Source: Pyrinomonadaceae bacterium
Lineage (GTDB): Bacteria > Acidobacteriota > Blastocatellia > Pyrinomonadales > Pyrinomonadaceae
Direction: 5' to 3'
Assembly: GCA_035536135.1 (NCBI GenBank)
Contig: DATLOR010000012.1
Span: forward strand, 1-56,914
Length of the DNA: 56,914 bases
The position numbers were made by a program, and so were the translations under genes. Each line of letters starts with the position of its first letter. The first letter of the stretch is position 1. Under the pieces are notes generated by a model. The model was not told the origin of the DNA. It did no database searches and saw nothing but the letters and a program-made list of their open reading frames with translations. Positions 22,152 through 48,924 of this stretch are shown in pieces.

Positions 22152-22168
22152 AGTTTTTCCTCTTTTTA

Positions 22169-22205: not shown

Positions 22206-22259
22206 TTTGATTTGTAAATTTTAGAACTTGGATTTTAGCAAATAAAGGAATCTTTTTCC

Positions 22260-31550: not shown

Positions 31551-32069
31551 CTACCCGGAAATCGCGACCGGCTTCGTATCCGAAACGGTGATCGACCATT
31601 TCCGCAAATCATCGGCTTTACCCGCGTTATTGGTCAGCAGCACAACCGATCTGACTTTCAAATCCGTCAAAATCTCCGCCGCCGGACGAAAGCTTCGCGC
31701 ATCTCGTTCGAATCCCGCTTTTTCGTAGGCTTCCGCCTGCTTCAATCCGGCTTTTTTATACGGAATGCTCGCCATCAGCGCCAGATGCCCGTTGCCTTTG
31801 CCTTCCTGTTCGAGATAAATAATCACGCCTTTTCCGGCATTTTGGATCAAACTTTGCGCCGCTTCCATTTCCGCCTGGCATTCACATTCGACGCTGTTAA
31901 AAACGTGCCCCGAAACGCAAGCCGAATGAACGCGGCAAATGACGTCTTCTTGCGTTTCGATGTTTCCCATCACGAGCGCGATCGATTCCTTTTGTCCGTC
32001 GTAATAAAGGATCTCCCGAAATATGCCGTATTTGGTCTGTAAATCTCTTTCCGTCAGTCTGAAAATCAT
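31551..32069 (-). CDS. GTP cyclohydrolase II-like protein (short RibA homologue)
   Basis: ORF track, 172 aa. RVHSACVSGHVFNSVECECQ matches the zinc Cys triad pattern of RibA, and YLEQEGKGNGH matches the RibA QEGRGIG loop. Confidence 0.78.
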   Translation of the reverse strand: MIFRLTERDLQTKYGIFREILYYDGQKESIALVMGNIETQEDVICRVHSACVSGHVFNSVECECQAEMEAAQSLIQNAGKGVIIYLEQEGKGNGHLALMASIPYKKAGLKQAEAYEKAGFERDARSFRPAAEILTDLKVRSVVLLTNNAGKADDLRKWSITVSDTKPVAISG

Positions 32070-32070: not shown

Positions 32071-32142
32071 CTAAATCTTAACGCATTCGCCGCGTTTGAT
32101 GAATTGTCTGCTGCCTTTTTCGACCGGATATTCGCTGTTTTC
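32071..32142 (-). pseudogene. relic of a dihydropyrimidinase 3' end (last about 24 codons plus stop)
   Basis: Minus-strand translation ENSEYPVEKGSRQFIKRGECVKI* matches the intact gene's ENGEHKGKAGDGQFLKRGECVKI*. Ungapped identity is 49/72 nt to 34680..34751. An in-frame TGA lies two codons upstream. Confidence 0.8.
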
Positions 32143-32167
32143 TTTTCAAAGTAAGATTACTAACTAC

Positions 32168-33157
32168 TTACAGTCTCAGCGTTTCGCCGAGTCCGAAAAA
32201 TTGGTATTTATCGCCGAATTCCTTTTGAAGAATTAAAAAACCGAGCTGTCCGGTGCAATGCGCCGGGGCGACCGCTTCAACGCCGTAATCGTCGCGCATC
32301 CGTTTTGCCAAACTTTCGATATACCCGCGTTTATAGGGAATAAGATGAAAGCCGCCCGCGACCAGATAAATTTTTTCCTGGCGCGTCTTTTTAGTTTCCT
32401 GAATGATACTTTCGATCGTGCTGTGCGAGCATCCTGAAATTATGATGTCGCCTTTTTCGGTCGCAAGTGAAAGCGATAATTCGGGCATACCGATAAACTG
32501 CGGATTTTTATCGAACGGCGGGTATTTGATAAAGGTTCCCATCAATTCGGAAGTCGTCGGGATCAATGTGACGCCGGGCAAAACCTCCTTCGCGGCGGTC
32601 AGATATTCGACATTTGCCTTCCAGAATCTGCCGGTCGGGACCGTGACCATTCCGTCCGTGGTTTTTTCGCCGCGAAAATACTGCTCGTCTTTCGGCAGCA
32701 ATTTCGCCGCATCAGGTTCGGTTTCGCGAAAGGGAAATTTCACGGGCGCACCGAGCGAAAAGAAATCGTTCGGCGCGTAAATTTTAACTTTCGGGTTAAC
32801 CTTTAGTAGATAATCAAAACCGCCGACGTGATCGTAGTGCCCGTGCGAAACGATTGCCACATCTATCTTTCGCAGATCAATTTTCAAAGTTTTAAGATTC
32901 TTCTCAAAAACTCGCGCGTCGGTTCCCGAGTCGAACAAAATCATCTTTCCTTTGTAATTAATCACACAGGAAAACCCGAAATCCTGCGTAAGTCCGTTAA
33001 TGTCCTTGCCGAAAGCGTCATAAACATTCGTCATCGTGACACCTAAAGCGGTCGGTTTCGTTTGGGCGGCAACCGGGAGCACAAACACGAACTGCGCGAT
33101 CATCGCTAAACACAGCAGGCAGGATTTTATTCGTTTCATGATTGTTTTCTTTTTCAC
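32168..33157 (-). CDS. secreted MBL-fold metallo-hydrolase
   Basis: ORF track, 329 aa. Signal peptide present. HGHYDHVGG (HxHxDH) motif. Confidence 0.85.
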   Translation of the reverse strand: MKKKTIMKRIKSCLLCLAMIAQFVFVLPVAAQTKPTALGVTMTNVYDAFGKDINGLTQDFGFSCVINYKGKMILFDSGTDARVFEKNLKTLKIDLRKIDVAIVSHGHYDHVGGFDYLLKVNPKVKIYAPNDFFSLGAPVKFPFRETEPDAAKLLPKDEQYFRGEKTTDGMVTVPTGRFWKANVEYLTAAKEVLPGVTLIPTTSELMGTFIKYPPFDKNPQFIGMPELSLSLATEKGDIIISGCSHSTIESIIQETKKTRQEKIYLVAGGFHLIPYKRGYIESLAKRMRDDYGVEAVAPAHCTGQLGFLILQKEFGDKYQFFGLGETLRL

Positions 33158-33195
33158 TCAAACCCTTGTTGAAATTTAATTAACCGATGCGGCGA

Positions 33196-33642
33196 TTACT
33201 TATCTTTCGGCATATCAGGCATATCAGCCATATCGATCATATCGAGAAACGGCGTGTCCTTATCGCTCACGTAAAAAATCACCAAGCGCAAAGGCTCGGT
33301 TGCGCTTCGGTTATAACCGGTCATTTTCACGTTCGGGGGCTCGATATACGCTTCGCCCGCTTTGACGACCAGCGGCTCTTTGCGTCCTTCGAGATTTAAT
33401 GTAAACGCGCCTTCGAGAATATAAACCGTCACCGGAAAACGGTGCTTATGAAATACGGTCTTATCGCCCGGCTTAAATTCCGCCGTCAAAACGCGCACTT
33501 CCTGATCTTTGCCCATCGGCATTCCCTTAATGATCTCGTTCAAAATCTGCTTGGGCTTTGTAACTCCCTGACCAAATACTGCCACGGGCAAGCCGATCAA
33601 TAAAAAGACAAATACAAAACCAAATTTCATTTGTTTATTCAT
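33196..33642 (-). CDS. secreted cupin-domain protein
   Basis: ORF track lists 33196..33678. The start MNKQMKFGFVFVFLLIGLPVAVFG lies at 33642. Cupin motif: FHKHRFPVTVYILEG. Confidence 0.8.
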   Translation of the reverse strand: MNKQMKFGFVFVFLLIGLPVAVFGQGVTKPKQILNEIIKGMPMGKDQEVRVLTAEFKPGDKTVFHKHRFPVTVYILEGAFTLNLEGRKEPLVVKAGEAYIEPPNVKMTGYNRSATEPLRLVIFYVSDKDTPFLDMIDMADMPDMPKDK

Positions 33643-33665
33643 ATGTTCTCCTGTAAAAAATTCTC

Positions 33666-33779
33666 CACACTGACGCAAGTTCCGCGCTTCAAAAATTGAC
33701 TGTCGCCTTGTCGTCCGACGAGGTATTCGCCGTTTTCGATGACGACGCGACCGCGCGACACAACGGTTTCGACCCGCTT
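33666..33779 (-). pseudogene. relic of a dihydropyrimidinase 3' end (about 37 codons, stop lost)
   Basis: Minus-strand translation VETVVSRGRVVIENGEYLVGRQGDSQFLKRGTCVSV is colinear with the C-terminus of 34680..36059. 33726..33774 matches 34740..34788 at 48/49 nt. Confidence 0.85.
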
Positions 33780-34649
33780 TTATTTAACTCTTGTTCCCAT
33801 CTGCGTCAGGCTCTCGCACATCGAACGAATATTGATGTGATCGAAATTATCAATCGTTGATTTGCGCCGATACATTTTCCATTGTGCGCCCTTGGCATCT
33901 TTGATAATGATGCCGTTTTCGGTTTCTGTTCCGTATCTCGCCCCCTCGATCTTGGCATGAGTCGTCCATTTGCCTTTGACGGGCGGTCTGCCGCCGTCCT
34001 GATACCAAACGTAGGTGCCGTCGGCGTTGATTTGAATGCCCGGTGATTTGCCCCAGGCGGCAATCGTTCCTGAGGCATTGCCATTGACCGCGACCGAAGT
34101 CATAGACCATTTGCCGACGAGAAATTTTATTTCAGCGTTGTCGGCGGAAATCGTCGCGGCTGGACGAACGAACATTGAATTTTCCCAAACATCGTATTTT
34201 TCGCTGCAGCCGTCGTAGTGAACTTTATACTGACTGCCGTTTATCTCGATAATCGTGCCGCGATTTTTTCCTTCCTTGTTGTCCGAAAGATAAACGTCAA
34301 CGCGCATCCCGGTTTTAAAGTTCCCGCCGTTCGGCGTTCGGTTGTCGTCGGGTTTGTCCGTATTTTGATTACCCTGCGTTTGATTGTTTTGCGGCGCGGC
34401 TTGCCGGCACTCGCCCAGGCGATCGGCGTTGTAAAAAGTATCGCGGTCTTTATACGTTCCTTCTTCGATGTGAACCGAATATTTCGGATCGGTCTGCCTG
34501 ACTGTCGCTTTCACGCAGCCGCCGGAAAAGGCGTTGACGTAAATCGTGTCGCCGACCTTGAAATCGGTTTTGTCCTGTGCGAAAGAAATTATCGCGCCGC
34601 CGAAAAGCAGCCCGACGGCGAAAAAGATAAAAGTTACATTAAATTTCAT
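33780..34649 (-). CDS. secreted hypothetical protein (two SH3/Tudor-like repeats plus beta-rich C-domain)
   Basis: ORF track, 289 aa. Signal peptide present. Repeated F(K)xGDxIYV / FKTGMRVDVY modules. Gln/Asn-rich linker. Confidence 0.7.
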   Translation of the reverse strand: MKFNVTFIFFAVGLLFGGAIISFAQDKTDFKVGDTIYVNAFSGGCVKATVRQTDPKYSVHIEEGTYKDRDTFYNADRLGECRQAAPQNNQTQGNQNTDKPDDNRTPNGGNFKTGMRVDVYLSDNKEGKNRGTIIEINGSQYKVHYDGCSEKYDVWENSMFVRPAATISADNAEIKFLVGKWSMTSVAVNGNASGTIAAWGKSPGIQINADGTYVWYQDGGRPPVKGKWTTHAKIEGARYGTETENGIIIKDAKGAQWKMYRRKSTIDNFDHINIRSMCESLTQMGTRVK

Positions 34650-34679
34650 AATCGTTCTTCTTTTAATTCGTGTGAACTT

Positions 34680-36059
34680 TCAAATCTTGACACATTCGCC
34701 GCGCTTGAGAAATTGCCCGTCGCCTGCCTTTCCTTTGTGTTCGCCGTTTTCGATGACGACGCGACCGCGCGACAGAACGGTTTCGACCTTGCCTTTGATC
34801 TTTTTGCCTTCGTAAGCGCAGTAATCGACGTTCATATGCTGGGCTTCGAGTGTGAATGTGTGTTCTTTTTCGGTGTCGAAGATCACGATGTCGGCATCGC
34901 TTCCGACGGCGATCGTGCCTTTTTTCGGGAACATTCCGAACATTTTCGCGGCAGCGGTCGAGGTCAGCTCGACAAAACGGTTGAGCGAAATTCGGTTTTC
35001 GACCACGCCGCCGTTGTAGATCAGTTCCATCCGGTATTCTACGCCCGGCGCGCCGTTCGGAATTTTCGAGAAATCATCGCGCCCTAATTCCTTTTGGTCT
35101 TTCATACAAAACGGGCAATGATCGGTCGCAATTATTTGAAGATCGTCCATTTTCAAACCCTTCCACAATTCATCGTGATTATGTTTTTCGCGAAGCGGCG
35201 GCGTCATCACATATTTCGCGCCTTCGAATCCCTCGCCGTAATCGTCAATCGAAAGAAACAAATATTGCGGGCAGGTTTCGGCAAACGCGGGAATGCCGCG
35301 GTCGCGTGCCTGACGGACTTGGTTGAGCGCGTCGGTGCAGCTCAAATGCACGATATAAACGGGCGTTTCCGCCATTTCTGCCAAGGCGATGGCGCGGTGC
35401 ACGCCTTCGGCTTCGGCAATGGTCGGGCGCGTCAGAGCGTGATATTTCGGCGCGGTTCTGCCTTCTGCGAGAAATTTTTTAATAATTTCGTTGATAACGA
35501 TACCGTTTTCCGCGTGCATACAAACCAGTCCGCCGCGTTCGCCCGCCGCGCTCATCGCCCGAAAAATCGTCGCGTCGTCCGAGAGAAAGACGCCCGGATA
35601 CGCCATAAACAATTTGAAGCTCGTGATGCCTTCATCGATCAATTTAAACATTTCGGGTTTGTGCCGGTCTTCAAAATCGGTCGTAATCAGGTGAAAGCCG
35701 TAATCGATCACGGCTTTGCCCTCGGCTTTCTGATGCCAAAGGTCGGCGCCCGCGAGCATCGATTCGCCTTTCGTCTGGACGGCGAAATCAATGATCGTCG
35801 TCGTTCCGCCGAACGCCGCCGCCCTGGTTCCCGTAAAAAAATCGTCCGACGAAGAAGTTCCGCCAAAGGGCAGTTCCATATGCGTATGCGGATCGATCCC
35901 GCCCGGAATGACCAATTTGCCCGAAGCGTCGATCACCGTGTCGGCTTCCATCTCCAATGTTTTCCCGATCACGGAAATCTGCTCGTCCTCGATTAAAATA
36001 TCCGCGCGGTAATCATCGACCGCCGTTACGATTCGTCCGTTTTTGATTAGTGTTTTCAT
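34680..36059 (-). CDS. dht: dihydropyrimidinase / D-hydantoinase
   Basis: ORF track, 459 aa. Motifs: MKTLIKNGRIVTA...GGIDPHTHMELPFGGT, carboxylated-Lys region SFKLFMAY, and ATDHCPF. Confidence 0.92.
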   Translation of the reverse strand: MKTLIKNGRIVTAVDDYRADILIEDEQISVIGKTLEMEADTVIDASGKLVIPGGIDPHTHMELPFGGTSSSDDFFTGTRAAAFGGTTTIIDFAVQTKGESMLAGADLWHQKAEGKAVIDYGFHLITTDFEDRHKPEMFKLIDEGITSFKLFMAYPGVFLSDDATIFRAMSAAGERGGLVCMHAENGIVINEIIKKFLAEGRTAPKYHALTRPTIAEAEGVHRAIALAEMAETPVYIVHLSCTDALNQVRQARDRGIPAFAETCPQYLFLSIDDYGEGFEGAKYVMTPPLREKHNHDELWKGLKMDDLQIIATDHCPFCMKDQKELGRDDFSKIPNGAPGVEYRMELIYNGGVVENRISLNRFVELTSTAAAKMFGMFPKKGTIAVGSDADIVIFDTEKEHTFTLEAQHMNVDYCAYEGKKIKGKVETVLSRGRVVIENGEHKGKAGDGQFLKRGECVKI

Positions 36060-36075
36060 AGTTTTTTAATAAAAA

Positions 36076-37515
36076 TCATTTGTTTTTTGCGGCTGTTTCA
36101 GCGTCAACCAGCATTTTGTCCAAAGTTTTTCTGTCTAACAATCTTCCGCCCGCGACGACCGAATTTATTTTGCGCGTGTTGGAAATGTCTTCGAGCGGAT
36201 TCGCGTCGAGCAAAATCAAATCCGCCAGTTTTCCTTTTTCAATCGTTCCCAAATCTTTCGCGCGGCGCATAAAAATTGCCGGATTGACGGTCGCGGTTTT
36301 TAAGGCTTCAAATGGTGAAAGTCCGGCGAGAACGAAGAGCGCAAGCTCATCGTGGAGAATCATTCCCGGCGTTCCGACCAAGTCGTAGCTTAACTGCGTT
36401 CCGGCAAGCAGCATTATTCCGGCGCGGTTTAAGTCAAAAATCTCCCGAAAATGTCTCATGCGGTTTTTGTCCGACATTCGATAATCCTGATTGCGAATTT
36501 GCCGTTCCCTTTCAATGATTTTCGCGTCGAGCTGCTCAATCTGCTTTTTCGTTTTAAAGCGGCGACGCGCTTCGTCCGTGAGTTCAAAATCTCCGATGAA
36601 AGTATCAGTTTGCGCGGCGTTAGTGGCGACAAAAGTTTTATTTCGCGCCATTGTTTTTATAGTTTCGTTATAATAAGGAGCGTCGGTTTCCATCGTGCCG
36701 AAGAATGCATAATTTTCGTCAGTCGTCATCGAATCAATTTTGCGGTCGCGGTAAAGCGCGTAGTATTCGTTGCGTTTGTTAGAAGTTTCCCGAAAAAATT
36801 CCGCAAAATGCTCGATGCAGTCCAGCCCGTCATTCGATGCGTCAATGATAAAGGAAGGCGGAACACCGACGACGCGCAAGTTTTGTTCGTGCGCGGCGGC
36901 GATGATTTCCTTTAAAGTTTCGGGCGGCGTGCGTTTTTCCGTTTTGATGAAATCCACGCCCGCGAGCGCGAGCGCGGCGACCGTTTTCCGCGCTTCTTCT
37001 TTTGTTTTCACAACAACAGAAATTCCCGTCCAGCGGTTGCTCTTGCGCGGCGGAAATTCGCCCTGCAAAACCGTTCCGGCATAAAACAGACGCGGCGCGA
37101 GCGTTCGTCCGGCGTTGATGTCGTCGCGCAGTTTCGCCGCTTCCTGCAAATCAAGAGACGTTCCGACATCGCGCACGCCGGTCACGCCGTTGGCGATCAA
37201 TAATTCAAAAAACGGGTAATCGTTTTTCTCGGCTTCGAGCACGAAAGTGTAATTATCCCAGAGTCCGGGAATCATAAATTTTCCTCTCGCGTCCACGACC
37301 TGCGCGTTTTTCGGAATCTTTAAATTCCTGCCGATCTTCACAATGCGGTTTCCTTTTACGAAAACCGAAACATTCGTCTTCGGTTGCGCGCTTTGCATAT
37401 CAATCAGCGTGACGCTGCGGAAAACAAGGAGACGATCCGGCGAAGTTTCACCGGCTTGCCCGAAGATCAATACCGGCAAGTAGAAAATCAACACCAGTGC
37501 AATCGTTTTTTTCAT
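36076..37515 (-). CDS. secreted amidohydrolase-superfamily protein
   Basis: ORF track, 479 aa. Signal peptide present. C-terminal GTIEKGKLADLILLDANPLEDISN is typical of the family. Confidence 0.82.
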   Translation of the reverse strand: MKKTIALVLIFYLPVLIFGQAGETSPDRLLVFRSVTLIDMQSAQPKTNVSVFVKGNRIVKIGRNLKIPKNAQVVDARGKFMIPGLWDNYTFVLEAEKNDYPFFELLIANGVTGVRDVGTSLDLQEAAKLRDDINAGRTLAPRLFYAGTVLQGEFPPRKSNRWTGISVVVKTKEEARKTVAALALAGVDFIKTEKRTPPETLKEIIAAAHEQNLRVVGVPPSFIIDASNDGLDCIEHFAEFFRETSNKRNEYYALYRDRKIDSMTTDENYAFFGTMETDAPYYNETIKTMARNKTFVATNAAQTDTFIGDFELTDEARRRFKTKKQIEQLDAKIIERERQIRNQDYRMSDKNRMRHFREIFDLNRAGIMLLAGTQLSYDLVGTPGMILHDELALFVLAGLSPFEALKTATVNPAIFMRRAKDLGTIEKGKLADLILLDANPLEDISNTRKINSVVAGGRLLDRKTLDKMLVDAETAAKNK

Positions 37516-37616
37516 TTCTTTAAATTGGCATCCAAACGTGTTGTCCCAATCGAAATATCCGCGCGGTAATCATCAAATGCCGCCCGCGAGTCGTCTGTTT
37601 TCATTAGCGTTTTCAT
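37512..37616 (-). pseudogene. relic of the dihydropyrimidinase 5' end, preserved as an intact 34-codon ORF
   Basis: Translation MKTLMKTDDSRAAFDDYRADISIGTTRLDANLKK* compares with the real MKTLIKNGRIVTAVDDYRADILIE. The identical core TCCGCGCGGTAATCATC occurs at 37558..37574 and 36001..36017. The TGA overlaps the ATG of 36076..37515 (ATGA). Confidence 0.8.
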
Positions 37617-37621
37617 AATTT

Positions 37622-39046
37622 TTATTTTATTTCTTCCAACTGAAAATCGGCTATTTTCCCGTCCTTTGTCAATTTCACCGTGCAGGAAAACGTACGCGTA
37701 ACGTCGTTTAGAAAATAACGATATACACGAAAATTGTCTTCAGCGCGGCGCTCGATCAATTCGTTTGTGTAAATGACCGCGACCGGAATGCTCAAAGAAG
37801 TCAGTTTTTCACCGATTTGTTTGGCGCGCGCCGGAAAAATTTCTGCCGCGGCTTCGGGCGTGAACAAATTCAAATCGGCGGCGCTCTTTGAAAACTGCAA
37901 TAAAACCCGCCTGACCAGCAAAGTCGTCTGCGGTTCCTTATCTTCGATCGGCGGCGCGGCGGGCGGCGCAAATTCGCGATAAAATAGCGCCGTTAGCCCG
38001 CGGGCGAGTTTAAATTCTTTCGTATCCCACGAATTGGCGAAAAAAATGATCGTCAGTTTGTCGTCGGGAAAACGACCAATAAACGACTTGAAGCCCTGCC
38101 ACGCGCCGCCGTGATAAATTAAACGGCGACCTTTGAATTCAACCGTATGCCAGCCAAAACCGTAAGCTTTTTCGCTGCCGTCGTTTAGTTTTACAGGCGT
38201 CCATATCTGCGCCAGAGTTGATTGTTTGAGCGGTTGATCCGTATAAAGCGCGGCATCCCATTTCGCCAAATCTAAAATTGTAAAATAAAGCGAGCCGTCG
38301 GCGGTCGTATTCGTCGAAGGCGAAACCCATTCCTGATTTTTCAGCACACCGTTTTCGAGCCGGTAACCAGCAGCACGATTCGGGATAATATCGGATTCCG
38401 AGATAATGCGCGCCGTCCGCATATCGAGCGGCTTAAAAATTCTTTCCTGCAAAAAATCGCCGTAAAACTTTCCGGTTACACGGCGCACGAGCGCGCCGAG
38501 CGTAAAGTATCCGGCATTGCTGTAATCCCACCGCGTGCCCGGCTCAAAGGCGAGCGGCGTTTTTTTGATAATGGCAAGATATTCGTCTTCCGAATAATCG
38601 CGCCGTAAATCGACTTCCGGCGGATAATCGCCCATTCCCGAAGTATGATTTAGAAGATTCCGCACGGTAATATTTTTCCACGCCTCGGGCGCGTCCGCAA
38701 AATATTTCGTGATTTTATCGTCAAGCGCCAACTTTCCTTCTTCGACCAGAATCATCACGGCAGCAGCGGTAAACTGCTTACCGATCGAGCCGGATTGAAA
38801 CACGGTCTCGGGTTTGACGGGCACGAGATGTTCGATGTTTGCCAGACCATAGCTTTTCAAAAACACGATTTTTCCGGCGCGCAAAACAGCGAGCGAAATG
38901 CCCGGTATTTTTTGCATCTGCATCTCGGCTTTAACATAGCGGTCAATTCCGGCTGAGATATTCTGCTGCGCAGCACACGGCAAAACAAACAGCCAAATAA
39001 TGCCGGAGAAAACTGTCAGCCAGTACCGAAATGTTTTAGCTCTCAT
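37622..39046 (-). CDS. secreted serine hydrolase (class-C beta-lactamase / DD-peptidase family)
   Basis: ORF track, 474 aa. Motifs: SxxK in SGSIGKQF, YxN in YSNAGY, and HGG in the KTG position. Confidence 0.85.
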   Translation of the reverse strand: MRAKTFRYWLTVFSGIIWLFVLPCAAQQNISAGIDRYVKAEMQMQKIPGISLAVLRAGKIVFLKSYGLANIEHLVPVKPETVFQSGSIGKQFTAAAVMILVEEGKLALDDKITKYFADAPEAWKNITVRNLLNHTSGMGDYPPEVDLRRDYSEDEYLAIIKKTPLAFEPGTRWDYSNAGYFTLGALVRRVTGKFYGDFLQERIFKPLDMRTARIISESDIIPNRAAGYRLENGVLKNQEWVSPSTNTTADGSLYFTILDLAKWDAALYTDQPLKQSTLAQIWTPVKLNDGSEKAYGFGWHTVEFKGRRLIYHGGAWQGFKSFIGRFPDDKLTIIFFANSWDTKEFKLARGLTALFYREFAPPAAPPIEDKEPQTTLLVRRVLLQFSKSAADLNLFTPEAAAEIFPARAKQIGEKLTSLSIPVAVIYTNELIERRAEDNFRVYRYFLNDVTRTFSCTVKLTKDGKIADFQLEEIK

Positions 39047-39166
39047 AACTATTGACTAAATAAAATTTACTCGTGATGTTATTGCTAAACGATTCCCCCA
39101 ATTTTGATAAATCCGGTCATAAGATTTAAAGCTGTTTTTTGCAAAGTTTCCAGGTAATCAAACAAT

Positions 39167-41716: not shown

Positions 41717-41928
41717 ATTGATTTTACGGCGCGATGAGCAGTTCAATCGAAGGCGAATAACTGCCGACCATTTCATTACCGATTAAATATCGCCCGCTCA
41801 AGTAGACTTGTTCGGGCTTGCCGTCCGTCAGAGGAATTTTGACGATTACCGGAGAATGAAAGTATCTGCCTAGATCATTTGCTTAAATAGAACAGCCGAA
41901 AATTCCGCACCCGCGGACGAAATTACGT

Positions 41929-42732
41929 CTAAGGCGTTCGCGGCGACGACGGAGTTGCCCGTTCGGTCGTCCACGGCGCGAGAATATCGATCTCCTCGAC
42001 CGTTTCCGTTTCCCACCATTCGACGTGCCATGTGTTCGCCGGGATGACGCAGGTAGAACCCGCCTCGAAAACCTGAACTTTGGTGTTGTTAAGGTCGCCC
42101 ATCAGAATGAATTTGCGTCCGCTGACAACTTTGATCCGCATTTCGGAGGAATGACGATGCGCCGCAATGCTCGCTCCGGGCTGCGCCGTTAGGGTATATT
42201 TAACGGGTCCGCCGCTGCGGTCGCCCGAAATCGGCTGAATCGTATAACCGAGCGGCGAGATGGATTCGTCCTCGATCCGAATCCGCCATTTGCCCGCCTG
42301 TTTGACGAGCAGAGCCGTGTAGGAAAGAGTCGCTTTGTCGCCCGCCGCCCCCTGCCATTCAAAAAGCCCCGCGACCGCCGCCGCGTCCTGAGACACGACT
42401 TCGATCGAAAGGTCTTTCCACGCAAAAGATTTCGGCGGCGTCCATCTGGTCAGATAACGATTTTTATTATCTTCAAATGAAACGAGAGTCTTATTTCCGT
42501 TGCCGAGCCGAAAATAACCGCGTCCGTCGTAGCGTTCGGCGATCGCTTCGCGCCGTCCCGCACGCAGATCCTCGGCATACGAATCGTAAAACTCCCGGAT
42601 TTCGCGCTCCGTTTTCGCCGCCGCCTTATTCGGCTTTTCAGGTTTCGGTGTTTTCGACGGAGTCTCCTGCCCATGAACCGCCACTTGAATGAAAGCGACA
42701 AGAATAAATACCGGCACAAATTTCTTTTTCAT
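41929..42732 (-). CDS. secreted DUF4440/SnoaL-like plus cupin two-domain protein
   Basis: ORF track, 267 aa. Signal peptide present. Cupin motif: AAHRHSSEMRIKVVSG...IPANTWH. Confidence 0.72.
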   Translation of the reverse strand: MKKKFVPVFILVAFIQVAVHGQETPSKTPKPEKPNKAAAKTEREIREFYDSYAEDLRAGRREAIAERYDGRGYFRLGNGNKTLVSFEDNKNRYLTRWTPPKSFAWKDLSIEVVSQDAAAVAGLFEWQGAAGDKATLSYTALLVKQAGKWRIRIEDESISPLGYTIQPISGDRSGGPVKYTLTAQPGASIAAHRHSSEMRIKVVSGRKFILMGDLNNTKVQVFEAGSTCVIPANTWHVEWWETETVEEIDILAPWTTERATPSSPRTP

Positions 42733-42766
42733 AAATTTTTATCTTTCTACCGATAAATTCGTCGCT

Positions 42767-44071
42767 CTAACAAAGGGCAAAACCTTGATCGAGCGCGGCA
42801 ACCAGCTCGTCAACATTGTCTTTCGTCGAATTGAGCATCATTCCCGTGCGGATGACATTGCCGTAAAGACCGCCTTTGCCGATCAGCACGCCACGGCGTT
42901 TGGTTTCTTCAAAAACGCGCAGGACGGCTTCGGGCGCGGGTTCTTTCGTTGTCCGGTCTTTGACGAGTTCGATGCCCTGCATCAAGCCCATTCCGCGCAC
43001 GTCGCCGATCACCGGGTATTTTTCTTTGAGTTCTTCCAATCTTTCGCGCAAATAATCGCCGACCGTTTTGCAGTTTGCGCGCAGATCGTCGTCTTCGATC
43101 ATCTTGATGACTGCCAGAGCGGCGGCGGTCGAGACGGGATTTCCGCCGAACGTCGCAAACGTTAAGCCGGGGAATTTGTCGGCGACTTCCGAAGTCGCGA
43201 TCGTCCAGCCGATCGGCACGCCGTTCGCCATTCCCTTAGCCGAAGTCATAATGTCGGGCGTGACGTTCCACTGCTCGATGCCGAACCACTTGTCGCCCGT
43301 TCTGCCCCAACCCGTCTGCACCTCGTCCGAAATGCAAAGTCCGCCGTGATTTCGCGCGATCTCGTAAGCGATCTGAAAATATTCGGGCGGCGGCACGATA
43401 AATCCGCCGACTCCTAAGATCGGTTCCGCCATAAACGCCGCGATTTCGCCCGTCGTCGTCGTCTGAATTATTTCTTCGATGTCCTGCGCGCAAGCCACGC
43501 CGCAGCTCGGGTATTCCAACTTGAATGGACAGCGGTAGCAATACGGCGCGGCGGCATGGACAACGCCCGCGACCTGCGAAGCGATCGGTTTCCACGTCGA
43601 ATGTCCGACCGATGAAAGCGCCGTCGCACTTCTGCCCGAATAACTGTGACGCAGGACAACGATTTCGTGTCTGCCCGTCGCGAGTTTCGCCGCTAAAATC
43701 GCCGTGTCGTCGGCTTCCGTCCCGCTCGATGTGAAAAACGATTTCTTCAGATCGCCGGGCGTGATCTCGGCGAGCTTTTCCGCCAGATTCGACTGATTCT
43801 CGTTGGCATAAAGCGCTGAAGTATGCTGAATTTTGTTGGTCTGCGCGATGATTGCTTCGTTAATGCGCGGATTCGCGTGTCCGACGCTGACGGTCAAAAC
43901 GCCGCCGAAACAATCGAGATAACGATTCCCCGCATCGTCCCAAACGTATTCGCCCTCGCCTTTGACCAAAGCGACCGGCTCCTGATAATAAGTGGCGACC
44001 GCCGGAAAAAGAAATTCCTTGTGCTTGCGCACCGCTTCCGAAACTGTAGTTTTTTGTTCTGTTGGATTCAT
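42767..44071 (-). CDS. class-III PLP aminotransferase (beta-alanine/omega-amino acid:pyruvate type)
   Basis: ORF track lists 42767..44212. The start MNPTEQKTTVSEAV lies at 44071. Motifs: SGTEADD, DEVQTGWGRTG, and PLP-Lys in MTSAKGMANG. Confidence 0.88.
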   Translation of the reverse strand: MNPTEQKTTVSEAVRKHKEFLFPAVATYYQEPVALVKGEGEYVWDDAGNRYLDCFGGVLTVSVGHANPRINEAIIAQTNKIQHTSALYANENQSNLAEKLAEITPGDLKKSFFTSSGTEADDTAILAAKLATGRHEIVVLRHSYSGRSATALSSVGHSTWKPIASQVAGVVHAAAPYCYRCPFKLEYPSCGVACAQDIEEIIQTTTTGEIAAFMAEPILGVGGFIVPPPEYFQIAYEIARNHGGLCISDEVQTGWGRTGDKWFGIEQWNVTPDIMTSAKGMANGVPIGWTIATSEVADKFPGLTFATFGGNPVSTAAALAVIKMIEDDDLRANCKTVGDYLRERLEELKEKYPVIGDVRGMGLMQGIELVKDRTTKEPAPEAVLRVFEETKRRGVLIGKGGLYGNVIRTGMMLNSTKDNVDELVAALDQGFALC

Positions 44072-44075
44072 AATT

Positions 44076-46361
44076 TTATTTTTTATTTCCTTGTAAAAAT
44101 TTGATCGCCGCGTCGAGAATTTCGTCTTTACCTTCGACGATTCCCCGAATTGACGGTGCGACCTTAACGGTTGGCTGAATGCCGATTCTTTGTAACTGCC
44201 TGCCGTCGGCATGACGCACCGAATGCCCGGAAAAACTGACGCGGATATTGCCGGGCAGAACGAGATTCGTCACGTCGCCGTTGGCACCCGTTGTCGGCGT
44301 GCCGATAAAAGTAATGTCGGGACGCGCCGTTTCGAAAAACAGACAGGTGTGTTCGGATTGGCTGATCGCGTATTCGTCAATCAGCATCACGATTTTGCCC
44401 TTATACACATCGCCTTTTTCGCGCTTCGGAATCGGCTGCCCGAAGGTAAAATTCGCGCCGTTCGAGTAATCTTCGTTGCTGATGTTTTTCGCTTCGAGCA
44501 GCGGATTGTCAAAGAGCGCGGCGACAGGCGAGATTTTGTCGGTCAGGCGCGGCGCGATCGACCAAGCCGTGCCGTTCGGATAGCCGCGCATATCGAAAAT
44601 GACGGCGGGCGCGTCCTTGATCGTCTCGAACATTTTATCAACCTCGCCGTTCTGCAAACGGTCGAGATCAATATATCCGAAACCGCTCGGCAGAACCGTA
44701 AAAACGGATGTCGTACGGTTATCGGCGTCAAAAATTCGCCGATCGGTGCGGTCGAGGCTGCGCGGCAGTTCAACCGTCCGAACCGCGCCGTCTGCGCCGC
44801 GCACGGTGAGCTTTGCCGTCGAATCTTTCTGACCGCGGAGCAGATTGTAATGAACGCTTCGCATCAATGCCTGCTCGGTTGAAGCGGCAGAGTAACGGGC
44901 GAGAAAATCGCGGCGTTTTCCAGCCGTTTCGCCGTCAATCGTGAGCACGACATCGCCCGCTTTGACCGGCAATTTGTCGTCTAAAACTTTGACAATGACG
45001 GTTTGATTTTCGACAAAGCGCACGACGACGGGCGGCATAAAATTACCGATTACTTGCGTCGAAACGTTAGCGTTTTGTACGCCGCCGTGCGAATCGTGAA
45101 TTTCCGTGACCATTTCGCGCACGGTAAATTCATATTCCGCCGCCGTTTTGTCGGCTTCAAACTGCGGAATGTATTTCGGCAAAAGACTCGCCCAATCGAA
45201 ACCCGTCAAATTTTTATACGGGTAAAAATAATTGATGACGTTCCAGAATCGAAAAAGCGCGAGCAGGCGGTATTCCCTTGCCGGAAACTGCATTTCCGAA
45301 TAAGTCTTATCCTTCTGCGAAATCTGCGCGATATTCGCCGCAGAAATTTTCGGACGATTTGAAACAAATTTATTTTCCGCGACGATTTTCTGCGCCGTCT
45401 TTTCGGCTTCGCCCTTCGGCGCAACCGCGTCGGGTACGAAACCGACTGAGCCGTCGGGCTGAACGATTTCCATCGTCCGCATTTTTACCGTGACGTTGTC
45501 GGCGATTTTTATTTCGTTAGGTTCAACGCCCAAATCATCCGTTTCGGCAACGATCAACGCTTTGCCCGCCGCCTGCAAACCGCTGAAAACATCATTCATT
45601 GACGAATTTGAATCGACGATGATCACCATCGGCGGCGTTTTGATATTTTTCGCGTCATCGCTGCCGAAACTTTCCGGCGTGTCGGTAATCAGTCCCGAAT
45701 AATAACCGCCCGAAGTCATACCGTCCTGCGGCGCATAACCGTTATACATTCGGTAGCGAATCGTCGAAAGCGTGACCTTTTTGTCGAGCGACGCGGACAA
45801 AATCTGCCGGAGCTGCGCGCCGAACGAATACAACAGATAATCATCCGTTTCGCCTTCCGTCCGCGCATCGATCACCAACGATTTCGCCTGCTCGAAAAGC
45901 TTGAAAAAGTTTTGCTGAAAATCTCTCCCTGTTTGATTGCTCTGCGAACTTGCTTTCGCCGCTTCCAGCGCGTCGTAAAACAAGACGCCGTTTTCCAGCC
46001 GCAGAGGCGCTTTGCCCGTTTCTGCCGTCGTCTTTTTATCGCCGTTTGGCGCTATCGGCGTTTTCACGAACGCCCGTGTCTGCGTGTCGCCGAGCGCGGC
46101 GAGCATCACGTTGACCGCCGCCGCGTATTCTTCCGGAGATTTTGCCGCATTGACTTTCGGAATCGTCTCGACGAGAGCCTTGTCCCAGTCAATTTCGCGG
46201 TAAGCAGGAAAAGGATGAAAATATTTCACCGCGCCCCAGACCTTTGCCAGACTGCTCAAACGCTCAATGCGTTTTTCTTCGGTCTGCGCCTGAACGACGA
46301 CCGAAAAAGCCGTGAAAAGTAAAAGCATCAAAAAATATTTTTTCATCTTGAAAATCTCCAT
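44076..46361 (-). CDS. secreted S41-family (tail-specific/C-terminal processing type) peptidase with PDZ-like insert
   Basis: ORF track, 761 aa. Signal peptide (MKKYFLMLLLFTAFSVVVQA) present. Motifs: IVMLIDEYAISQSEH and FIGTPTTGANG. The stop lies 4 nt from the aminotransferase ATG. Confidence 0.78.
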   Translation of the reverse strand: MEIFKMKKYFLMLLLFTAFSVVVQAQTEEKRIERLSSLAKVWGAVKYFHPFPAYREIDWDKALVETIPKVNAAKSPEEYAAAVNVMLAALGDTQTRAFVKTPIAPNGDKKTTAETGKAPLRLENGVLFYDALEAAKASSQSNQTGRDFQQNFFKLFEQAKSLVIDARTEGETDDYLLYSFGAQLRQILSASLDKKVTLSTIRYRMYNGYAPQDGMTSGGYYSGLITDTPESFGSDDAKNIKTPPMVIIVDSNSSMNDVFSGLQAAGKALIVAETDDLGVEPNEIKIADNVTVKMRTMEIVQPDGSVGFVPDAVAPKGEAEKTAQKIVAENKFVSNRPKISAANIAQISQKDKTYSEMQFPAREYRLLALFRFWNVINYFYPYKNLTGFDWASLLPKYIPQFEADKTAAEYEFTVREMVTEIHDSHGGVQNANVSTQVIGNFMPPVVVRFVENQTVIVKVLDDKLPVKAGDVVLTIDGETAGKRRDFLARYSAASTEQALMRSVHYNLLRGQKDSTAKLTVRGADGAVRTVELPRSLDRTDRRIFDADNRTTSVFTVLPSGFGYIDLDRLQNGEVDKMFETIKDAPAVIFDMRGYPNGTAWSIAPRLTDKISPVAALFDNPLLEAKNISNEDYSNGANFTFGQPIPKREKGDVYKGKIVMLIDEYAISQSEHTCLFFETARPDITFIGTPTTGANGDVTNLVLPGNIRVSFSGHSVRHADGRQLQRIGIQPTVKVAPSIRGIVEGKDEILDAAIKFLQGNKK

Positions 46362-46366
46362 AGATT

Positions 46367-48100
46367 TTACGGCGCAACGTTTTTGACCGACGGATTCGGA
46401 CGCGCCCGGGTTGTCGTGTCAATGAAAAATAACCCGTCAAATTCCTTATTCAGCGTTTTCAGCGGATACGGAGTCGCTTCAAAGCTCGGCGTATAACCCG
46501 AACCGACCGAGCGGAACTGGCGCGGCGTGCTGAGCCATTCGGTGATTTCTGCCGTTTGACGCACAGCACGAAAATCTATGATAAAACTTTTCACGCCCGT
46601 TTGCGCTTCATACCATTCGATCGAATCAGGAATTGCCGGACCCACTGACCACGATTTTAACATGACTTTGCCTGCATCTTGCGGCTCTTGTTCACGTGCT
46701 TGAAACGCGCCCTGATTAAAGCTAAAACCGAGCGCGTAATAACTTTTGCCGTAAAGGCGGCGCAGGTGAGAGCCCAAAGGCTGATAACCGTCGGATTCAC
46801 CGGTTTGTATGTGACCGTTGTGCGCCCAGACGACAAAGCGCGTGTTCGCCGTTTCGCGGTTCACGATACGGCGCAGATTATCCGCCATATAAAGATCGCG
46901 CGTTGCCACGCCTTTTCTCCAATCAGTATAACTGTAGGAATCGAGATACTGCGCGATAACGCGCGCCAGCTCGAACATCCGTTCATATTCCGCCTGACTC
47001 GATTTTGCGACGAGATTCGCGCCGTTGAGGTCGAGAAAAACCAATAGTTCGTTGTATTTATTTTTCAAATCATTGAATTTCGCGGGCGCGTCCTTGTCTT
47101 TTTGTTCAAAAATCGCTTCCGCCGTCTCTTCTTCGCTGATTTTGAAAAGCGTTTCCGCATCCGCCGTGCGTTCCGGCGCGACGCGCTTTAAATATTCGAG
47201 CAGTTTCGTTTTGCCCGTCTTATTTATTTGAATATCAAAGCCGACAAATTTTACCTTTTTGTTTGCCGGAACGCTTTTATTATACTCGCGCATCCAGTCG
47301 ATCATCGCCCGCACTTCCTCGGTGTTCCAGGTCCAAAAACCCTGCGAATCGAGAGCCTTCGCGCCGTCGTCCGATCTGCCCATCACGTAATCATTGATGT
47401 TTTCGCACGCCGAATAGCTCGCTTCGATGGCAAACACGCGAAAACCCATTTCTTTGACCAAAAATTCGAGCATTCGATGTTTGAATCGAAAAAATTCGCG
47501 CGTACCGTGCGTCTGTTCGCCCAAACCGACAAAGCGCACGTCTCTGAAAACCTGTTTGAGCGGCTGCAAATCTGCAAAACCGTTTCCGGCTTCGACGGTT
47601 TTAATCGGAATCAGATCATTTTTCAGCCACGAAATAACGGCTTGCTGTTTGCGCTTAAGTTCGGCGAGCCGTTTGGCGTTCGCTTTCGGGGAAAGCAGTT
47701 CGTTGACGCGAATTTCGTAGCGTCCCGATTTGGCAGTTTTCGCCTGTCCAAACCGACTGACTTCGATGCGGTACACGCCCGCCGTTTTTGCTTCGAGCCG
47801 GATCGGTTCATCGCCCTGATCGCCGTTCGGCGAATCAATCTCGGCAACTTTCGAATTATCCGGCGCGAAAACCTGCACGACGACATCGATTCCGCGCTGA
47901 TTGACCGCCGCATCCAGAAATTCGCCGTTTTTGAGCGTGATTTGGTAAACGTGTGTTTCACCTGCCTGCATTTCGCGCTCAACCGGCTTCCCGGGTTCCG
48001 GCATATTGTAAGTTTGTGCGAAAACGCTAATCCACAAAGCGAAAATCATTACAAATAATCGTAAAATATACATTATATTTTTAAGGCTTATCTGTTTCAT
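46367..48100 (-). CDS. secreted erythromycin-esterase (Ere/ChaN-like) family protein with N-terminal PPC-like domain
   Basis: ORF track, 577 aa. Family signature: VGLGEQTHGTREFFRFKHRMLEFLVKEMGFRVFAIEASY. Confidence 0.8.
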   Translation of the reverse strand: MKQISLKNIMYILRLFVMIFALWISVFAQTYNMPEPGKPVEREMQAGETHVYQITLKNGEFLDAAVNQRGIDVVVQVFAPDNSKVAEIDSPNGDQGDEPIRLEAKTAGVYRIEVSRFGQAKTAKSGRYEIRVNELLSPKANAKRLAELKRKQQAVISWLKNDLIPIKTVEAGNGFADLQPLKQVFRDVRFVGLGEQTHGTREFFRFKHRMLEFLVKEMGFRVFAIEASYSACENINDYVMGRSDDGAKALDSQGFWTWNTEEVRAMIDWMREYNKSVPANKKVKFVGFDIQINKTGKTKLLEYLKRVAPERTADAETLFKISEEETAEAIFEQKDKDAPAKFNDLKNKYNELLVFLDLNGANLVAKSSQAEYERMFELARVIAQYLDSYSYTDWRKGVATRDLYMADNLRRIVNRETANTRFVVWAHNGHIQTGESDGYQPLGSHLRRLYGKSYYALGFSFNQGAFQAREQEPQDAGKVMLKSWSVGPAIPDSIEWYEAQTGVKSFIIDFRAVRQTAEITEWLSTPRQFRSVGSGYTPSFEATPYPLKTLNKEFDGLFFIDTTTRARPNPSVKNVAP

Positions 48101-48103
48101 TTT

Positions 48104-48166
48104 GAAATTCCTCGTGCTTGCGAACGGCTTTTCAAACCGTTGTTTTTTGTTCTGCTGGATTCAAAT
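48104..48166 (-). pseudogene. relic of the aminotransferase 5' end (first about 20 codons; ATG to TTG, premature TGA)
   Basis: 48104..48163 matches 44011..44070 at 51/60 nt with no gaps. The relic reads TTG AAT CCA GCA GAA CAA AAA ACA ACG GTT TGA, against the real MNPTEQKTTVS. Confidence 0.85.
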
Positions 48167-48189
48167 ATTTAATTCTCTATTTTAGCTGT

Positions 48190-48549
48190 TGAAATAAAAA
48201 AGAAAACCGGTCGGCGAACTCTTCGTCGAGCTGTTCCCGGGTCGTCCCGCTGCCCGTGCCCCGTATCAATAATCGACACGCAGCCAAACCTGCTTGCCGC
48301 TTGCGGAAGCCGCCGGCAAACGCCCCGTCGCTTCTAAATCTTCCATTCAACGATCCGGATCAACGATTTTCACGCCGAAATATTCATTCGTGACGCTATC
48401 AATCCGCGCTTTCGCCGGCGTGTTTTGGGCAAGATCCGCCGAATAAAAAAAGTAAGCGGCAATAGGCAGACGACAATCAACGAAAAGCTATGCGCTCGAT
48501 GTTTGCGCAGAGCTTTCGAGATCTTTATTTTTTGCGCTGCCGAATACAT
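48190..48549 (-). pseudogene. decayed N-terminal fragment of an S9 prolyl-oligopeptidase-like gene
   Basis: Good RBS (GGAGACC-ATG at 48549). Translation is MYSAAQKIKISKALRKHRAHSFSLIVVCLLPL...ARIDSVTNEYFGVKIVDPDR*MEDLEA. The family N-terminal motif G.K..DPYRWLED is present but its Trp codon is TGA. The frame is lost afterwards, and the ORF track has no ORF of 60 aa or more here. Confidence 0.45.
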
Positions 48550-48898: not shown

Positions 48899-48924
48899 TT
48901 ATTTTCAATAAACTAGCTAAAAAG

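Follow-up and report, generated by a model that had tools for sequence, protein, structure and literature searches.

The 56.9-kb contig analyzed here (referred to throughout as the window) is from a soil member of the Pyrinomonadaceae (Acidobacteriota) and holds a reductive pyrimidine-catabolism operon in which seven core genes share 33 kb (15207-48100) with 17 unrelated genes, 24 genes in all. In compact relatives the same seven-gene operon occupies ∼9 kb with its core genes almost contiguous. At four junctions in the window, the end of a core gene is followed, beyond one to three foreign genes (the cargo), by a diverged, colinear copy of that same gene end, which we term a relic. We assign a probability of roughly 0.6 to the reading that such junctions arise by homology-anchored import of a gene end together with its cargo, with the far joint made in very short homology. 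This would be a sequential displacement similar to homology-facilitated illegitimate recombination (HFIR), with later spread and reshuffling by ordinary recombination. Under this reading the operon would act as a landing platform for unrelated genes with no need for a dedicated recombinase.

All four junctions that a first-pass annotation of this DNA had proposed are present (Table 1). To detect relics, the window was searched by tblastn with all proteins of the region and, in addition, with the ends of orthologues from all related loci. Each relic is a minus-strand copy colinear with the intact gene, found on the side expected for that gene end, with one to three co-oriented open reading frames (ORFs) between relic and gene. 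None of 1000 dinucleotide shuffles per spacer reached the score of any relic (45-106, against a shuffle mean of 16-17 and a standard deviation of 2.5). Two relics derive from the 3′ end of dht, the main docking gene. Relic 1 aligns with dht residues 424-459 at 33776-33666 (70% over 37 amino acids, E = 1.4e-10; 78/93 nt), and the E value is 3e-15 when the dht tail of the related locus L009 serves as the query. Relic 2 aligns with residues 437-459 at 32142-32074 (61% over 23 amino acids, with a core of 39/50 nt) and is 83% identical to the dht C-terminus of L002 (E = 8e-8). The dht 5′ relic, which is matched by 77 orthologous dht N-termini, agrees with the resident sequence at 35996-36066 in 59/72 nt, start codon included (tblastn places dht residues 1-23 at 37616-37548). 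It runs from the native junction with the stop codon of the beta-lactamase-like gene blac through the ATG and ∼21 codons (nt +64), with ∼10 nt more of weaker similarity. The aminotransferase 5′ relic consists of 16 nt of upstream sequence, a start codon that is now TTG, and ∼20 codons with an in-frame stop. It matches the resident sequence at 44011-44088, 17 nt of upstream sequence included, in 65/79 nt and 75% of 20 amino acids (E = 3e-6). The resident aminotransferase itself had been given a start at 44212 from its long ORF; the true start is the ATG at 44071.

When 390 orthologous ends were used as queries, no relics of the permease, aldehyde dehydrogenase, CN-hydrolase, PreT, or PreA genes were found in the window. 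A candidate third dht-head relic in the spacer between the GH9 and beta-lactamase-like genes, as L002 has upstream of blac, was rejected when 91/1000 shuffles reached its score, and weak dht-tail-like matches in another frame inside the GH9 gene were set aside as chance. We note two features of the aminotransferase 5′ relics that touch on translation. In the window, an A-to-G change in the relic makes a GAGG 9 nt before the ATG of the erythromycin-esterase gene (ere). In L085 (4800-4866; ORF 4806-6413), a cargo ORF upstream of the aminotransferase gene seems to begin at the start codon of the relic, which may thus donate a translation start, and perhaps the first ∼20 codons, to its cargo.

The recurrence of the signature had been asserted from a single window, whereas its real support comes from a census of 162 related loci. 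A dht scan of species-representative genomes gave 80 loci, mostly labelled Pyrinomonadaceae or Acidobacteriota, and a second, independent set comprised 80 metagenome loci; all sequences compared are metagenome contigs or metagenome-assembled genomes (MAGs). An exact-sequence look-up of the window dht matched no second contig, and a search for close relatives returned none above 93% protein identity, so that empty and filled alleles of one species could not be compared. For the census, 374 core genes in the 162 loci were tiled in 150-nt segments. The 374 segments holding the first 150 nt yielded 15 extra copies, all upstream and on the same strand, and the 374 holding the last 150 nt yielded 23, all downstream and on the same strand. 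The 2773 true interior segments gave about 5, which are short chance matches or resemble repetitive extragenic palindromic (REP) elements. The total is 38 relics of core-gene ends, 38/38 on the expected side and strand and none from a gene interior, and 24 loci carry at least one polar relic. Both ends of dht and of the aminotransferase gene are represented, as are the 3′ ends of the permease and PreA genes. DNA self-comparison places aminotransferase 3′ relics in L004, L007, L045, L063, and L067, a PreA 3′ relic in L031, and a permease 3′ relic in L009, and separate scans of the same kind add aldehyde dehydrogenase 3′ relics in L063 and L067. The clade nearest the window is the richest, with relics in 10/13 loci whose dht is at least 85% identical. 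An ORF-level protein scan of the loci gave the same polarity, with 21 C-terminal fragments downstream on the same strand versus 1 upstream and all intergenic N-terminal fragments upstream, and the signature is repeated in the second set of 80 metagenome loci (L083, L085, L089, L112, and L128).

The anatomy of these junctions is consistent from locus to locus. The duplicated segment measures 28-206 nt, mostly 60-120; segments from 3′ ends reach the stop codon and sometimes a few nt past it, and segments from 5′ ends begin at or before the start codon. The inner edge of the relic lies 0-20 nt from the stop codon of the cargo or a few to ∼40 nt from its start codon. Inserts are mostly 0.2-2.5 kb, up to 5 kb, and nearly always hold one to three ORFs co-oriented with the operon. 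The relics, which are strictly polar, carry stops, frameshifts, and lost stop codons, and arrays of two or three occur in L009 (two 3′ relics), L010, L013 (three 5′ relics), L083, and L128. Cargo in the relatives includes genes of type II toxin-antitoxin systems (BrnT/A, Phd/PIN, a PIN protein, an MqsA-like antitoxin) and an XisH/XisI pair, together with an S9-type hydrolase, a MOSC protein, a creatininase, an O-methyltransferase, a kinase-TPR protein, beta-lactamase-fold proteins, and amidohydrolases. DUF4440 genes serve as cargo in both L081 and L009 and were considered as one cassette, an idea rejected at 39/160 identical positions.

Small addiction-type modules are frequent cargo and lie between gene and relic in L003 (4280-5022), L004 (8502-9081), L007 (7363-7924), L008 (495-1216), L031 (17406-17855), L067 (7854-8165), and L013 (9312-9800); in this list, the XisH/XisI pair and a nucleotidyltransferase-like ORF are counted as such modules on our own reading. 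Outside the pyrimidine genes of L007, the upstream region and head of an antitoxin-like gene occur three times (14915-15137, 15747-15779, and 16282-16506); of these copies, one is decayed and another stands at the head of a different ORF. The relic signature may therefore extend beyond the core genes of the operon. Two other sets of repeats were set apart from the relics. The four-copy repeats of L084 (11086-18287) were rejected as a relic array, being intact zinc-ribbon N-termini (MKRCPECRRDYFDD...) of large tandem paralogous genes, and the three-copy repeats of L100 (2790-6878) are probably the starts of tandem ORFs rather than relics, as judged from ORF positions only.

The pattern of mismatches between the two copies bears on where they came from. 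In 18 ungapped relic/resident pairs, the 223 mismatches are divided 51/29/143 among codon positions 1/2/3 (chi-square p = 4e-22 versus equal shares). According to a rough model of our own, a local duplicate decaying neutrally beside a selected gene would place at most ∼46% of the mismatches at position 3 and near a quarter at position 2; the observed shares are 64% and 13%. This third-position bias indicates that most of the divergence arose while both copies were in working genes, and hence that one copy of each pair came from another lineage rather than from decay of a local duplicate. Tandem duplication followed by replacement, the alternative offered by the annotation, is contradicted by this test in its purely local form. 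The course of the divergence within a pair is also that of orthologues, in that the copies are almost the same in the conserved block and have diverged in the last codons, which are variable by nature. Window relic 1 and the resident gene agree in 48/49 positions over the first 49 nt and diverge after, with a longest exact match of <40 nt, and the L045 pair shows 72 nt at 96% followed by 21 nt at about 60%.

The 3′ end of dht in the window is where the origin of the copies is best resolved. The body of the gene is nearest L001/L083/L002 (84-87% nucleotide identity), and the 58 nt before the tail still match L001 in 54/58 positions. The last 72 nt (34680-34751) are instead nearest L007/L085/L081/L008 (60-61 of 70-72 positions, 86-87%; L007, 61/70). 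The window dht is thus a chimera with a body of the L001/L083/L002 clade and a tail of the L007/L008/L081/L085 clade. Relic 2, in turn, matches the resident tails of L002 (64/71) and L083 (63/70) far better than the window's own resident tail (49/70), and it abuts the start of the GTP-cyclohydrolase-II gene, as the intact dht does in L001 and L002. Relic 1 is of the native clade for its first 65 nt (L001, 56/58) and of another type for its last ∼50 nt. These nearest neighbors and the junction of relic 2 with the GTP-cyclohydrolase-II gene argue that here the intact gene has an imported end, the native ends being the relics. Relic and resident as each other's closest relatives with clock-like decay, the pattern that would have favored simple local duplication, is not what relic 2 shows, since it is nearer L002/L083 than its own resident tail. 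The earlier proposal that relics derive from other lineages stands insofar as the copies come from different lineages, on the evidence of codon positions and clade neighbors, and is reversed at this end.

The cargo next to this chimeric tail can be followed into another locus. L081 has a dht body of the L007/L008 clade, and directly after dht it encodes a homologue (84%) of the 289-aa cargo protein of the window; the order is dht, 289-aa gene, relic, DUF4440, relic, GTP cyclohydrolase II, permease. The two sequences are colinear at 83.5% nucleotide identity from dht through the cargo and share the junction "stop-aagcg-(G/T)GTCGAA". About 12 nt past this shared junction the relics become clade-specific, that of the window matching L001 in 56/58 positions and that of L081 being nearest L008. 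From these comparisons, the 289-aa gene was probably imported together with the present dht tail. The pattern is that expected if a segment comprising the dht end, the cargo, and the start of the donor's relic, from an L081-like lineage, had recombined with the ancestor of the window; the left crossover would then be placed where the conserved block of dht ends, and the right joint would be confined to about 12 nt. The homology-anchored import with an illegitimate or short-homology resolution that the annotation had put forward fits this junction, and the ∼12 nt of shared sequence at the right joint are compatible with either a short-homology joint or an ordinary crossover in a short, diverged arm. 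A 68% homologue of the 289-aa cargo stands alone in an unrelated context in L082, and a stand-alone gene of this type is plausible as the kind of source from which the cargo originally came.

The observed anatomy, polarity, recurrence, ortholog-type divergence, chimeric dht, and shared cargo junction with clade-specific relics suggest to us the following course of events. DNA of a related lineage would enter carrying the orthologous gene end with a different neighboring gene, and recombination through the long homology of the conserved gene would anchor it. The far side, which lacks long homology, would join the recipient's copy at very short homology, no more than ∼30-200 nt in from its start or end. 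The intact gene would thereby receive the donor's end (or start) together with the cargo, and the recipient's own end would be displaced outward as a nonfunctional relic. Repeated rounds would build arrays of the form gene, cargo, relic, cargo, relic. Cargo lying between two copies of a gene end could then pass to any relative that has the gene, with the relic serving as the second homology arm despite different neighbors. We infer both the enzymology, namely RecA-type recombination with short-homology or illegitimate joining, and the route of DNA entry. That only gene ends are seen would follow if long direct repeats deleted the cargo again and insertions that did not restore the gene were lost. 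The window array itself reads dht, cargo, relic 1, cargo, relic 2, native neighbor; the newest insert is nearest the gene, the displaced former ends are distal, and the relic beside the native neighbor is of the native type.

Relics also appear to remain in use after they have formed. Between the same two dht 3′ relics, the window holds a cupin gene and a metallo-beta-lactamase-fold (MBL) gene and L081 holds a DUF4440 gene. At the 5′ end of dht, L002 has a relic at the blac stop codon in the same position as in the window, and beside it lies an S9-type hydrolase gene where the window has the amidohydrolase; L004 has BrnT/A plus other cargo at its dht 5′ relic. The beta-lactamase-like gene of L002 is itself bracketed by two dht-head relics. 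In L007 and in L004, an aminotransferase-tail relic closes a BrnT/A unit; in L004 this unit is repeated in tandem, away from the aminotransferase gene. That the same relic frame holds different cargo in different species indicates that relics keep serving as recombination partners, and it bears out the description of these gene ends as reusable docking sites.

No dedicated mobility machinery was found. As the annotation had stated, no transposase, integrase, attC-like site, or terminal inverted repeat accompanies the junctions, as assessed by Pfam, folding, and repeat scans. Integrase or transposase domains are absent from all 34 window ORFs searched with Pfam and from 30 cargo ORFs of 17 other loci, and neither an IntI-type nor any other recombinase occurs in the operon or the rest of the window. 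No terminal inverted repeats stand out; the imperfect matches (71-83%, assessed without a shuffle control) lie mostly within genes, away from cassette borders. In 10 lineages the duplicated dht tail is no more structured than shuffled sequences (z -1.3 to +1.4), which leaves no attC-like hairpin, and the only Rfam family in the window is a tRNA-Thr. Promoter-like and terminator-like sites are not enriched, and the duplicated segments of different genes share no motif. Seven of 11 dht 3′ relics start at ATyGARAAyGG; the other dht relics, the aminotransferase relics, and the dht 5′ relics have different borders. The variable length of the duplication is unlike the fixed-length target duplication of a transposon.

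Several explanations compete with homology-anchored import. One is a true cassette system in which circles made of a gene-end segment and its cargo are excised between two segment copies and reintegrated by a Campbell-type single crossover at the same gene end in a second genome or elsewhere in an array, the relic being an attC-like tag read by general recombination or by an enzyme encoded elsewhere. The compact cargo units, mostly single co-oriented ORFs that fill the insert, would suit such a system, as would borders that are tight even in the youngest events, the clustering of relic starts at one site in 7/11 dht 3′ relics, the BrnT/BrnA unit that keeps its aminotransferase-tail relic in L007 and, in tandem and off-site, in L004, and arrays of up to three relics (L013). 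A Campbell event, however, predicts a donor-like proximal relic, and window relic 1 is of the native clade for its first 65 nt (56/58 to L001). With neither a circular form nor an empty hybrid site observed, segments that vary in length (28-206 nt) and differ in sequence between genes, and no candidate enzyme in the window, we consider this system doubtful. Local duplicative insertion would proceed instead by filling in of a staggered break, or by a template switch to an ectopic or foreign gene that returns ∼100 nt upstream; a long target duplication would result, one copy of which is later changed by recombination with relatives. It accounts for complete direct repeats that flank the cargo with no loss of recipient sequence, for repeats that straddle gene junctions in L002 and L004, for near-identical pairs (L032, 89/91; L045, 69/72; the L009 permease pair, 28/28), and for the fact that in most events neither copy is clearly foreign. 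Yet shares of 64% at position 3 and 13% at position 2 are unexpected from the neutral decay of an identical copy, the divergence within pairs tracks the between-species conservation profile (window relic 1, L045), and window relic 2 is much closer to the resident tail of another species than to its own, all of which makes this route improbable.

Remnants of integrase-borne islands, inserted site-specifically into the ends of protein genes with a replacement end carried in attP and the integrase later lost or supplied in trans, would produce the same architecture of an intact gene with an element-supplied end, the element, and the displaced native end. Islands that target tRNA genes are known to accumulate in tandem at a single att site, which is in keeping with arrays of this kind. 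The lack of an integrase in the 34 window ORFs and 30 further cargo ORFs, inserts that are mostly only 0.2-2.5 kb (up to 5 kb), the use of at least seven different gene ends with no shared core, and repeat borders whose positions at the 3′ end of the aminotransferase gene and the 5′ end of dht differ by tens of nt render this origin more improbable still. Chimeric assembly of strain variants could also mimic partial duplications, given that all the data are metagenome contigs or MAGs and that the relics look like alleles from other lineages. It would then have to explain dht, the 289-aa gene, and a relic with an identical junction in the independent assembly L081 at 83.5% nucleotide identity, as well as relics in assemblies from many projects and assemblers, their stops, frameshifts, lost stop codons, and strict polarity, and a longest exact match between copies of <40 nt in window relic 1; we regard an artifact of this sort as very improbable.

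Homology-anchored import has its own difficulties, and the following observations weigh against it. Cargo borders are tight even in the youngest event, L032, where the repeats agree in 89/91 positions and the cargo is separated from the dht stop by ∼20 nt and from the relic by 15 nt. Partial cargo genes, often expected from random fragment ends, were not seen. Together, these two features point to pre-formed cassette units, and most events may be transfers of existing units. The start of 7/11 dht 3′ relics at ATyGARAAyGG calls for either a preferred joint or a relic scaffold inherited from a common ancestor. In L002 and L004, the gene start lies within the duplicated segment, which takes in 15 nt of the end of the preceding gene in L002 and ∼105 nt of spacer in L004; this is equally expected from duplicative insertion. 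A founding event, in which new cargo is first placed beside a gene end, was not observed, and the data are all from metagenome assemblies. Moreover, when relic and resident tail were each compared with the tails of the five nearest relatives, 11/12 scorable relics were about as close to them as the resident was; only window relic 2 separates from its resident in this test. The dht 3′ end of the window is the one place where the foreign copy is resolved. The tight borders and clustered relic starts suggest that pre-formed units circulate, possibly as circles. We entertain, tentatively, a stronger formulation in which the Pyrinomonadaceae possess an integrase-free, homology-addressed cassette system. 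A gene-end fragment of ∼30-200 nt would be the address tag that travels with a compact ORF unit, an orthologous gene would suffice for uptake by general recombination, and the operon would be an integron-like platform collecting resistance-like hydrolases and toxin-antitoxin modules across species.

Table 1. Genes and relics of the pyrimidine-catabolism operon in the window and of its upstream border
Feature	Position	Strand	Remarks
PreA-like subunit	15207-16463	-	Pfam
PreT-like subunit	18521-19903	-	Pfam
CN-hydrolase	21282-22151	-	Pfam
Aldehyde dehydrogenase	23965-25428	-	Pfam
Cytosine/uracil-type permease	29318-31063	-	Pfam
GTP cyclohydrolase II-like gene	31551-32069	-	Pfam PF00925; former immediate downstream neighbor of dht; adjoins dht in L001, L002, L084
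dht 3′ relic 2	32071-32142	-	oldest native dht end; between MBL-fold gene and GTP-cyclohydrolase-II gene
MBL-fold protein	32168-33157	-	Pfam PF00753
Cupin gene	33196-33641	-	Pfam PF07883
dht 3′ relic 1	33666-33774	-	former dht end, stop codon mutated; between 289-aa gene and cupin gene
Secreted 289-aa protein	33780-34649	-	no Pfam match; function not assigned
dht, dihydropyrimidinase/hydantoinase-type amidohydrolase	34680-36059	-	Pfam; main docking gene
Second amidohydrolase	36076-37515	-	Pfam PF01979; signal peptide; only ∼33% identical to dht over short stretches
dht 5′ relic	37553-37623	-	between beta-lactamase-like gene and second amidohydrolase
Beta-lactamase-fold protein (blac)	37622-39046	-	Pfam; aminotransferase-dht interval; no relic detected upstream of blac
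GH9 + polysaccharide deacetylase gene	39167-41776	-	Pfam; aminotransferase-dht interval; no relic detected
DUF4440 + cupin gene	41929-42732	-	Pfam; aminotransferase-dht interval; no relic detected
Class-III aminotransferase	42767-44071	-	Pfam PF00202, E 2e-97; 76-89% identical orthologues adjoin dht in relatives
S41/tricorn-like peptidase	44076-46361	-	Pfam PF03572, PF14684; absent from related loci
Erythromycin-esterase family protein (ere) with PPC domain	46367-48100	-	Pfam PF05139, E 1e-72; GC3 0.56
Aminotransferase 5′ relic	48104-48182	-	ends 3 nt before ere ATG
Degraded gene upstream of operon	48170-48549	-	signal peptide, then frameshifted prolyl-oligopeptidase-like N-terminal fragment with stops

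Between 48.1 and 15.2 kb, every called gene of the window is on the minus strand except a DUF4440 ORF (16556-17008). The GC content at third codon positions (GC3) is 0.62-0.66 in all seven core genes versus 0.37-0.62 in the accessory genes. Compact Pyrinomonadaceae relatives have the order aminotransferase, dht, permease, beta-ureidopropionase, PreT, PreA. In L033, for instance, the aminotransferase gene ends at 6602, dht spans 6650-8026, and the permease and CN-hydrolase genes follow at 8093 and 9569; the gap between the aminotransferase gene and dht is 32-48 nt in L029 and L033. The aldehyde dehydrogenase gene is upstream of the aminotransferase gene in these relatives and between the permease and CN-hydrolase genes in the window. 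As for the cargo, no homologue of ere was found in any related locus at E < 1e-8, and 34% homologues of the second amidohydrolase occupy the same slot in L019 and L085. Hydrolases of ring amides, lactams, or lactones recur as cargo in the window and its relatives (the second amidohydrolase, the beta-lactamase and MBL folds, creatininase, and erythromycin esterase), and this hydrolase-rich cargo hints at selection for co-expression rather than random cargo. Several window cargo proteins have signal-peptide-like N-termini, as read by eye, unlike the core enzymes.

A truncated S9 peptidase gene had been reported alongside the junctions. The claim is only partly borne out, by a frameshifted, stop-containing fragment whose match at 48269-48469 to positions 1-30 of Pfam Peptidase_S9_N (PF02897) is below threshold (E = 0.017). 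The putative C-terminal piece has no support, nor does a link to the process that formed the relics, and no S9 gene occurs at the corresponding site in related loci. About 270 nt upstream of this degraded gene is a tRNA-Thr(CGT) gene (48823-48898, plus strand), followed by a strong hairpin (48915-48999). Although tRNA genes are classic island borders, neither an integrase nor a repeat of a tRNA fragment was seen beside this one at the head of the operon.

Other repeats in the window and its relatives are of a different kind. A REP-like element of ∼35 nt (GCGAAATCCGCGTTCATCCGCGGCT core) occurs four times in the spacers flanking the CN-hydrolase gene and a small ferredoxin-like ORF, with direct copies at 22168-22208 and 20959-20999 and inverted copies at 21245-21279 and 22255-22290; it may serve as an operator or a recombination substrate, or be a repetitive extragenic element. 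The permease ORF encodes 581 aa and its Pfam domain stops at residue 439, and the tail may be fused or read-through; a 40-nt near-palindrome (GCAGAATCAGCAGAGTCTGCAGATTCCGCTGATTCTGC) lies in this C-terminal extension (29339-29378, minus strand). Near-perfect palindromes of 60-180 nt occur in operon spacers of many relatives, some at conserved sites near the permease/CN-hydrolase junction; examples are L034 (8297-8396), L036 (7769-7856), L050 (five sites), L063 (14589-14673), and L067 (14476-14555). Outside the operon, a 2399-aa ORF (7203-14402, plus strand) with ∼560-nt internal repeats (about 8541-12139), preceded by an extracytoplasmic function (ECF) sigma factor gene (6007-6753), appears unrelated.

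These findings support the notion of a family-wide route of gene gain that needs only a conserved gene and general recombination; gene gain in bacteria with few recognizable mobile elements is otherwise poorly explained. Any genome can be screened for the signature, in which one to three foreign genes separate a gene end from its polar, ortholog-type copy. In this scheme relics are more than debris, since they hold a slot open for further exchange, and the same route is a possible one for toxin-antitoxin loci, whose mobility is poorly understood. Some of the cargo families are tied to antibiotic inactivation (erythromycin esterase, beta-lactamase fold, and MBL fold, all Pfam assignments only) and may thus bear on the shuffling of resistance genes in soil.

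In the literature searched, this signature is described neither for a metabolic operon nor for the Acidobacteria, an absence that is no proof of novelty; the analogues found were only in toxin loci and Neisseria, with nothing on Pyrinomonadaceae. The closest parallel is sequential displacement, the model put forward to account for orphan immunity genes and displaced effector ends of Vibrio type VI secretion system (T6SS) clusters and Rhs loci, for which HFIR was proposed as the mechanism and a parallel to integrons was noted (PMC5361080). In the loci of Rhs, of contact-dependent inhibition (CDI) with its CdiA-CT/CdiI orphans, and of T6SS, as in the present operon, a conserved part is the anchor, a new end is inserted with its adjacent gene or genes, and the former ends pile up downstream as orphan fragments, with no integrase, HFIR as the proposed mechanism, and later spread by ordinary homologous recombination. 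There, the variable end is a toxin payload, its neighbor is an immunity gene, and selection for diversity explains the arrays. The combination of a toxin body, a variable tip, and a cognate immunity gene is absent here: the docking genes encode catabolic enzymes, several per operon, and are used at both their 5′ and 3′ ends, and the unrelated cargo consists of secreted hydrolases, resistance-like enzymes, proteins without an assigned function, and type II toxin-antitoxin pairs. Sequential displacement would thus be extended from toxin loci, where diversity is selected, to an ordinary metabolic operon.

HFIR itself is known as one-sided homology in the natural transformation of Acinetobacter, Streptococcus, and Pseudomonas, as cited in PMC5361080. 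The one-sided anchor is alike in our case, in which the window dht is chimeric at the expected place, and the far joint would fall in ∼12 nt of shared sequence, compatible with very short homology. Laboratory HFIR usually leads to loss of recipient DNA, not to its duplication. In the present loci, the joint is always inside the recipient's own copy of the anchor end and gives a duplication, and the tight, recurring cargo suggests circulating, pre-formed units. Integron cassettes resemble the inserts in being compact, mostly single co-oriented ORFs with no promoter-like enrichment, added at a fixed point from which older units are pushed away, with cargo that includes resistance-like enzymes and toxin-antitoxin modules. 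They differ in that the present loci have no IntI, attI, or attC hairpin, and the repeat is a fragment of the neighboring protein gene, different for each gene.

The prophage e14 and phage 21 at icd, like tRNA-targeting islands, integrate in a gene end and carry a replacement end. The likeness lies in an element-supplied end on the intact gene and a native end that survives at the far border as a diverged direct repeat; the difference lies in the lack of an integrase, the small inserts, the variable borders, and the many target genes of the loci described here. Minimal mobile elements are defined by a pair of conserved flanking genes that differ from each other, and they are not known to leave a duplicate of a gene end. 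In the concept as cited in PMC3787668, the minimal mobile elements of Neisseria are alternative gene sets between conserved genes, swapped by recombination in the flanks with no mobility gene, which is the manner of exchange that we propose for cargo held between a gene and its relic. In the pyrimidine operon, by contrast, one of the two homology arms is the relic of the very gene that provides the other.

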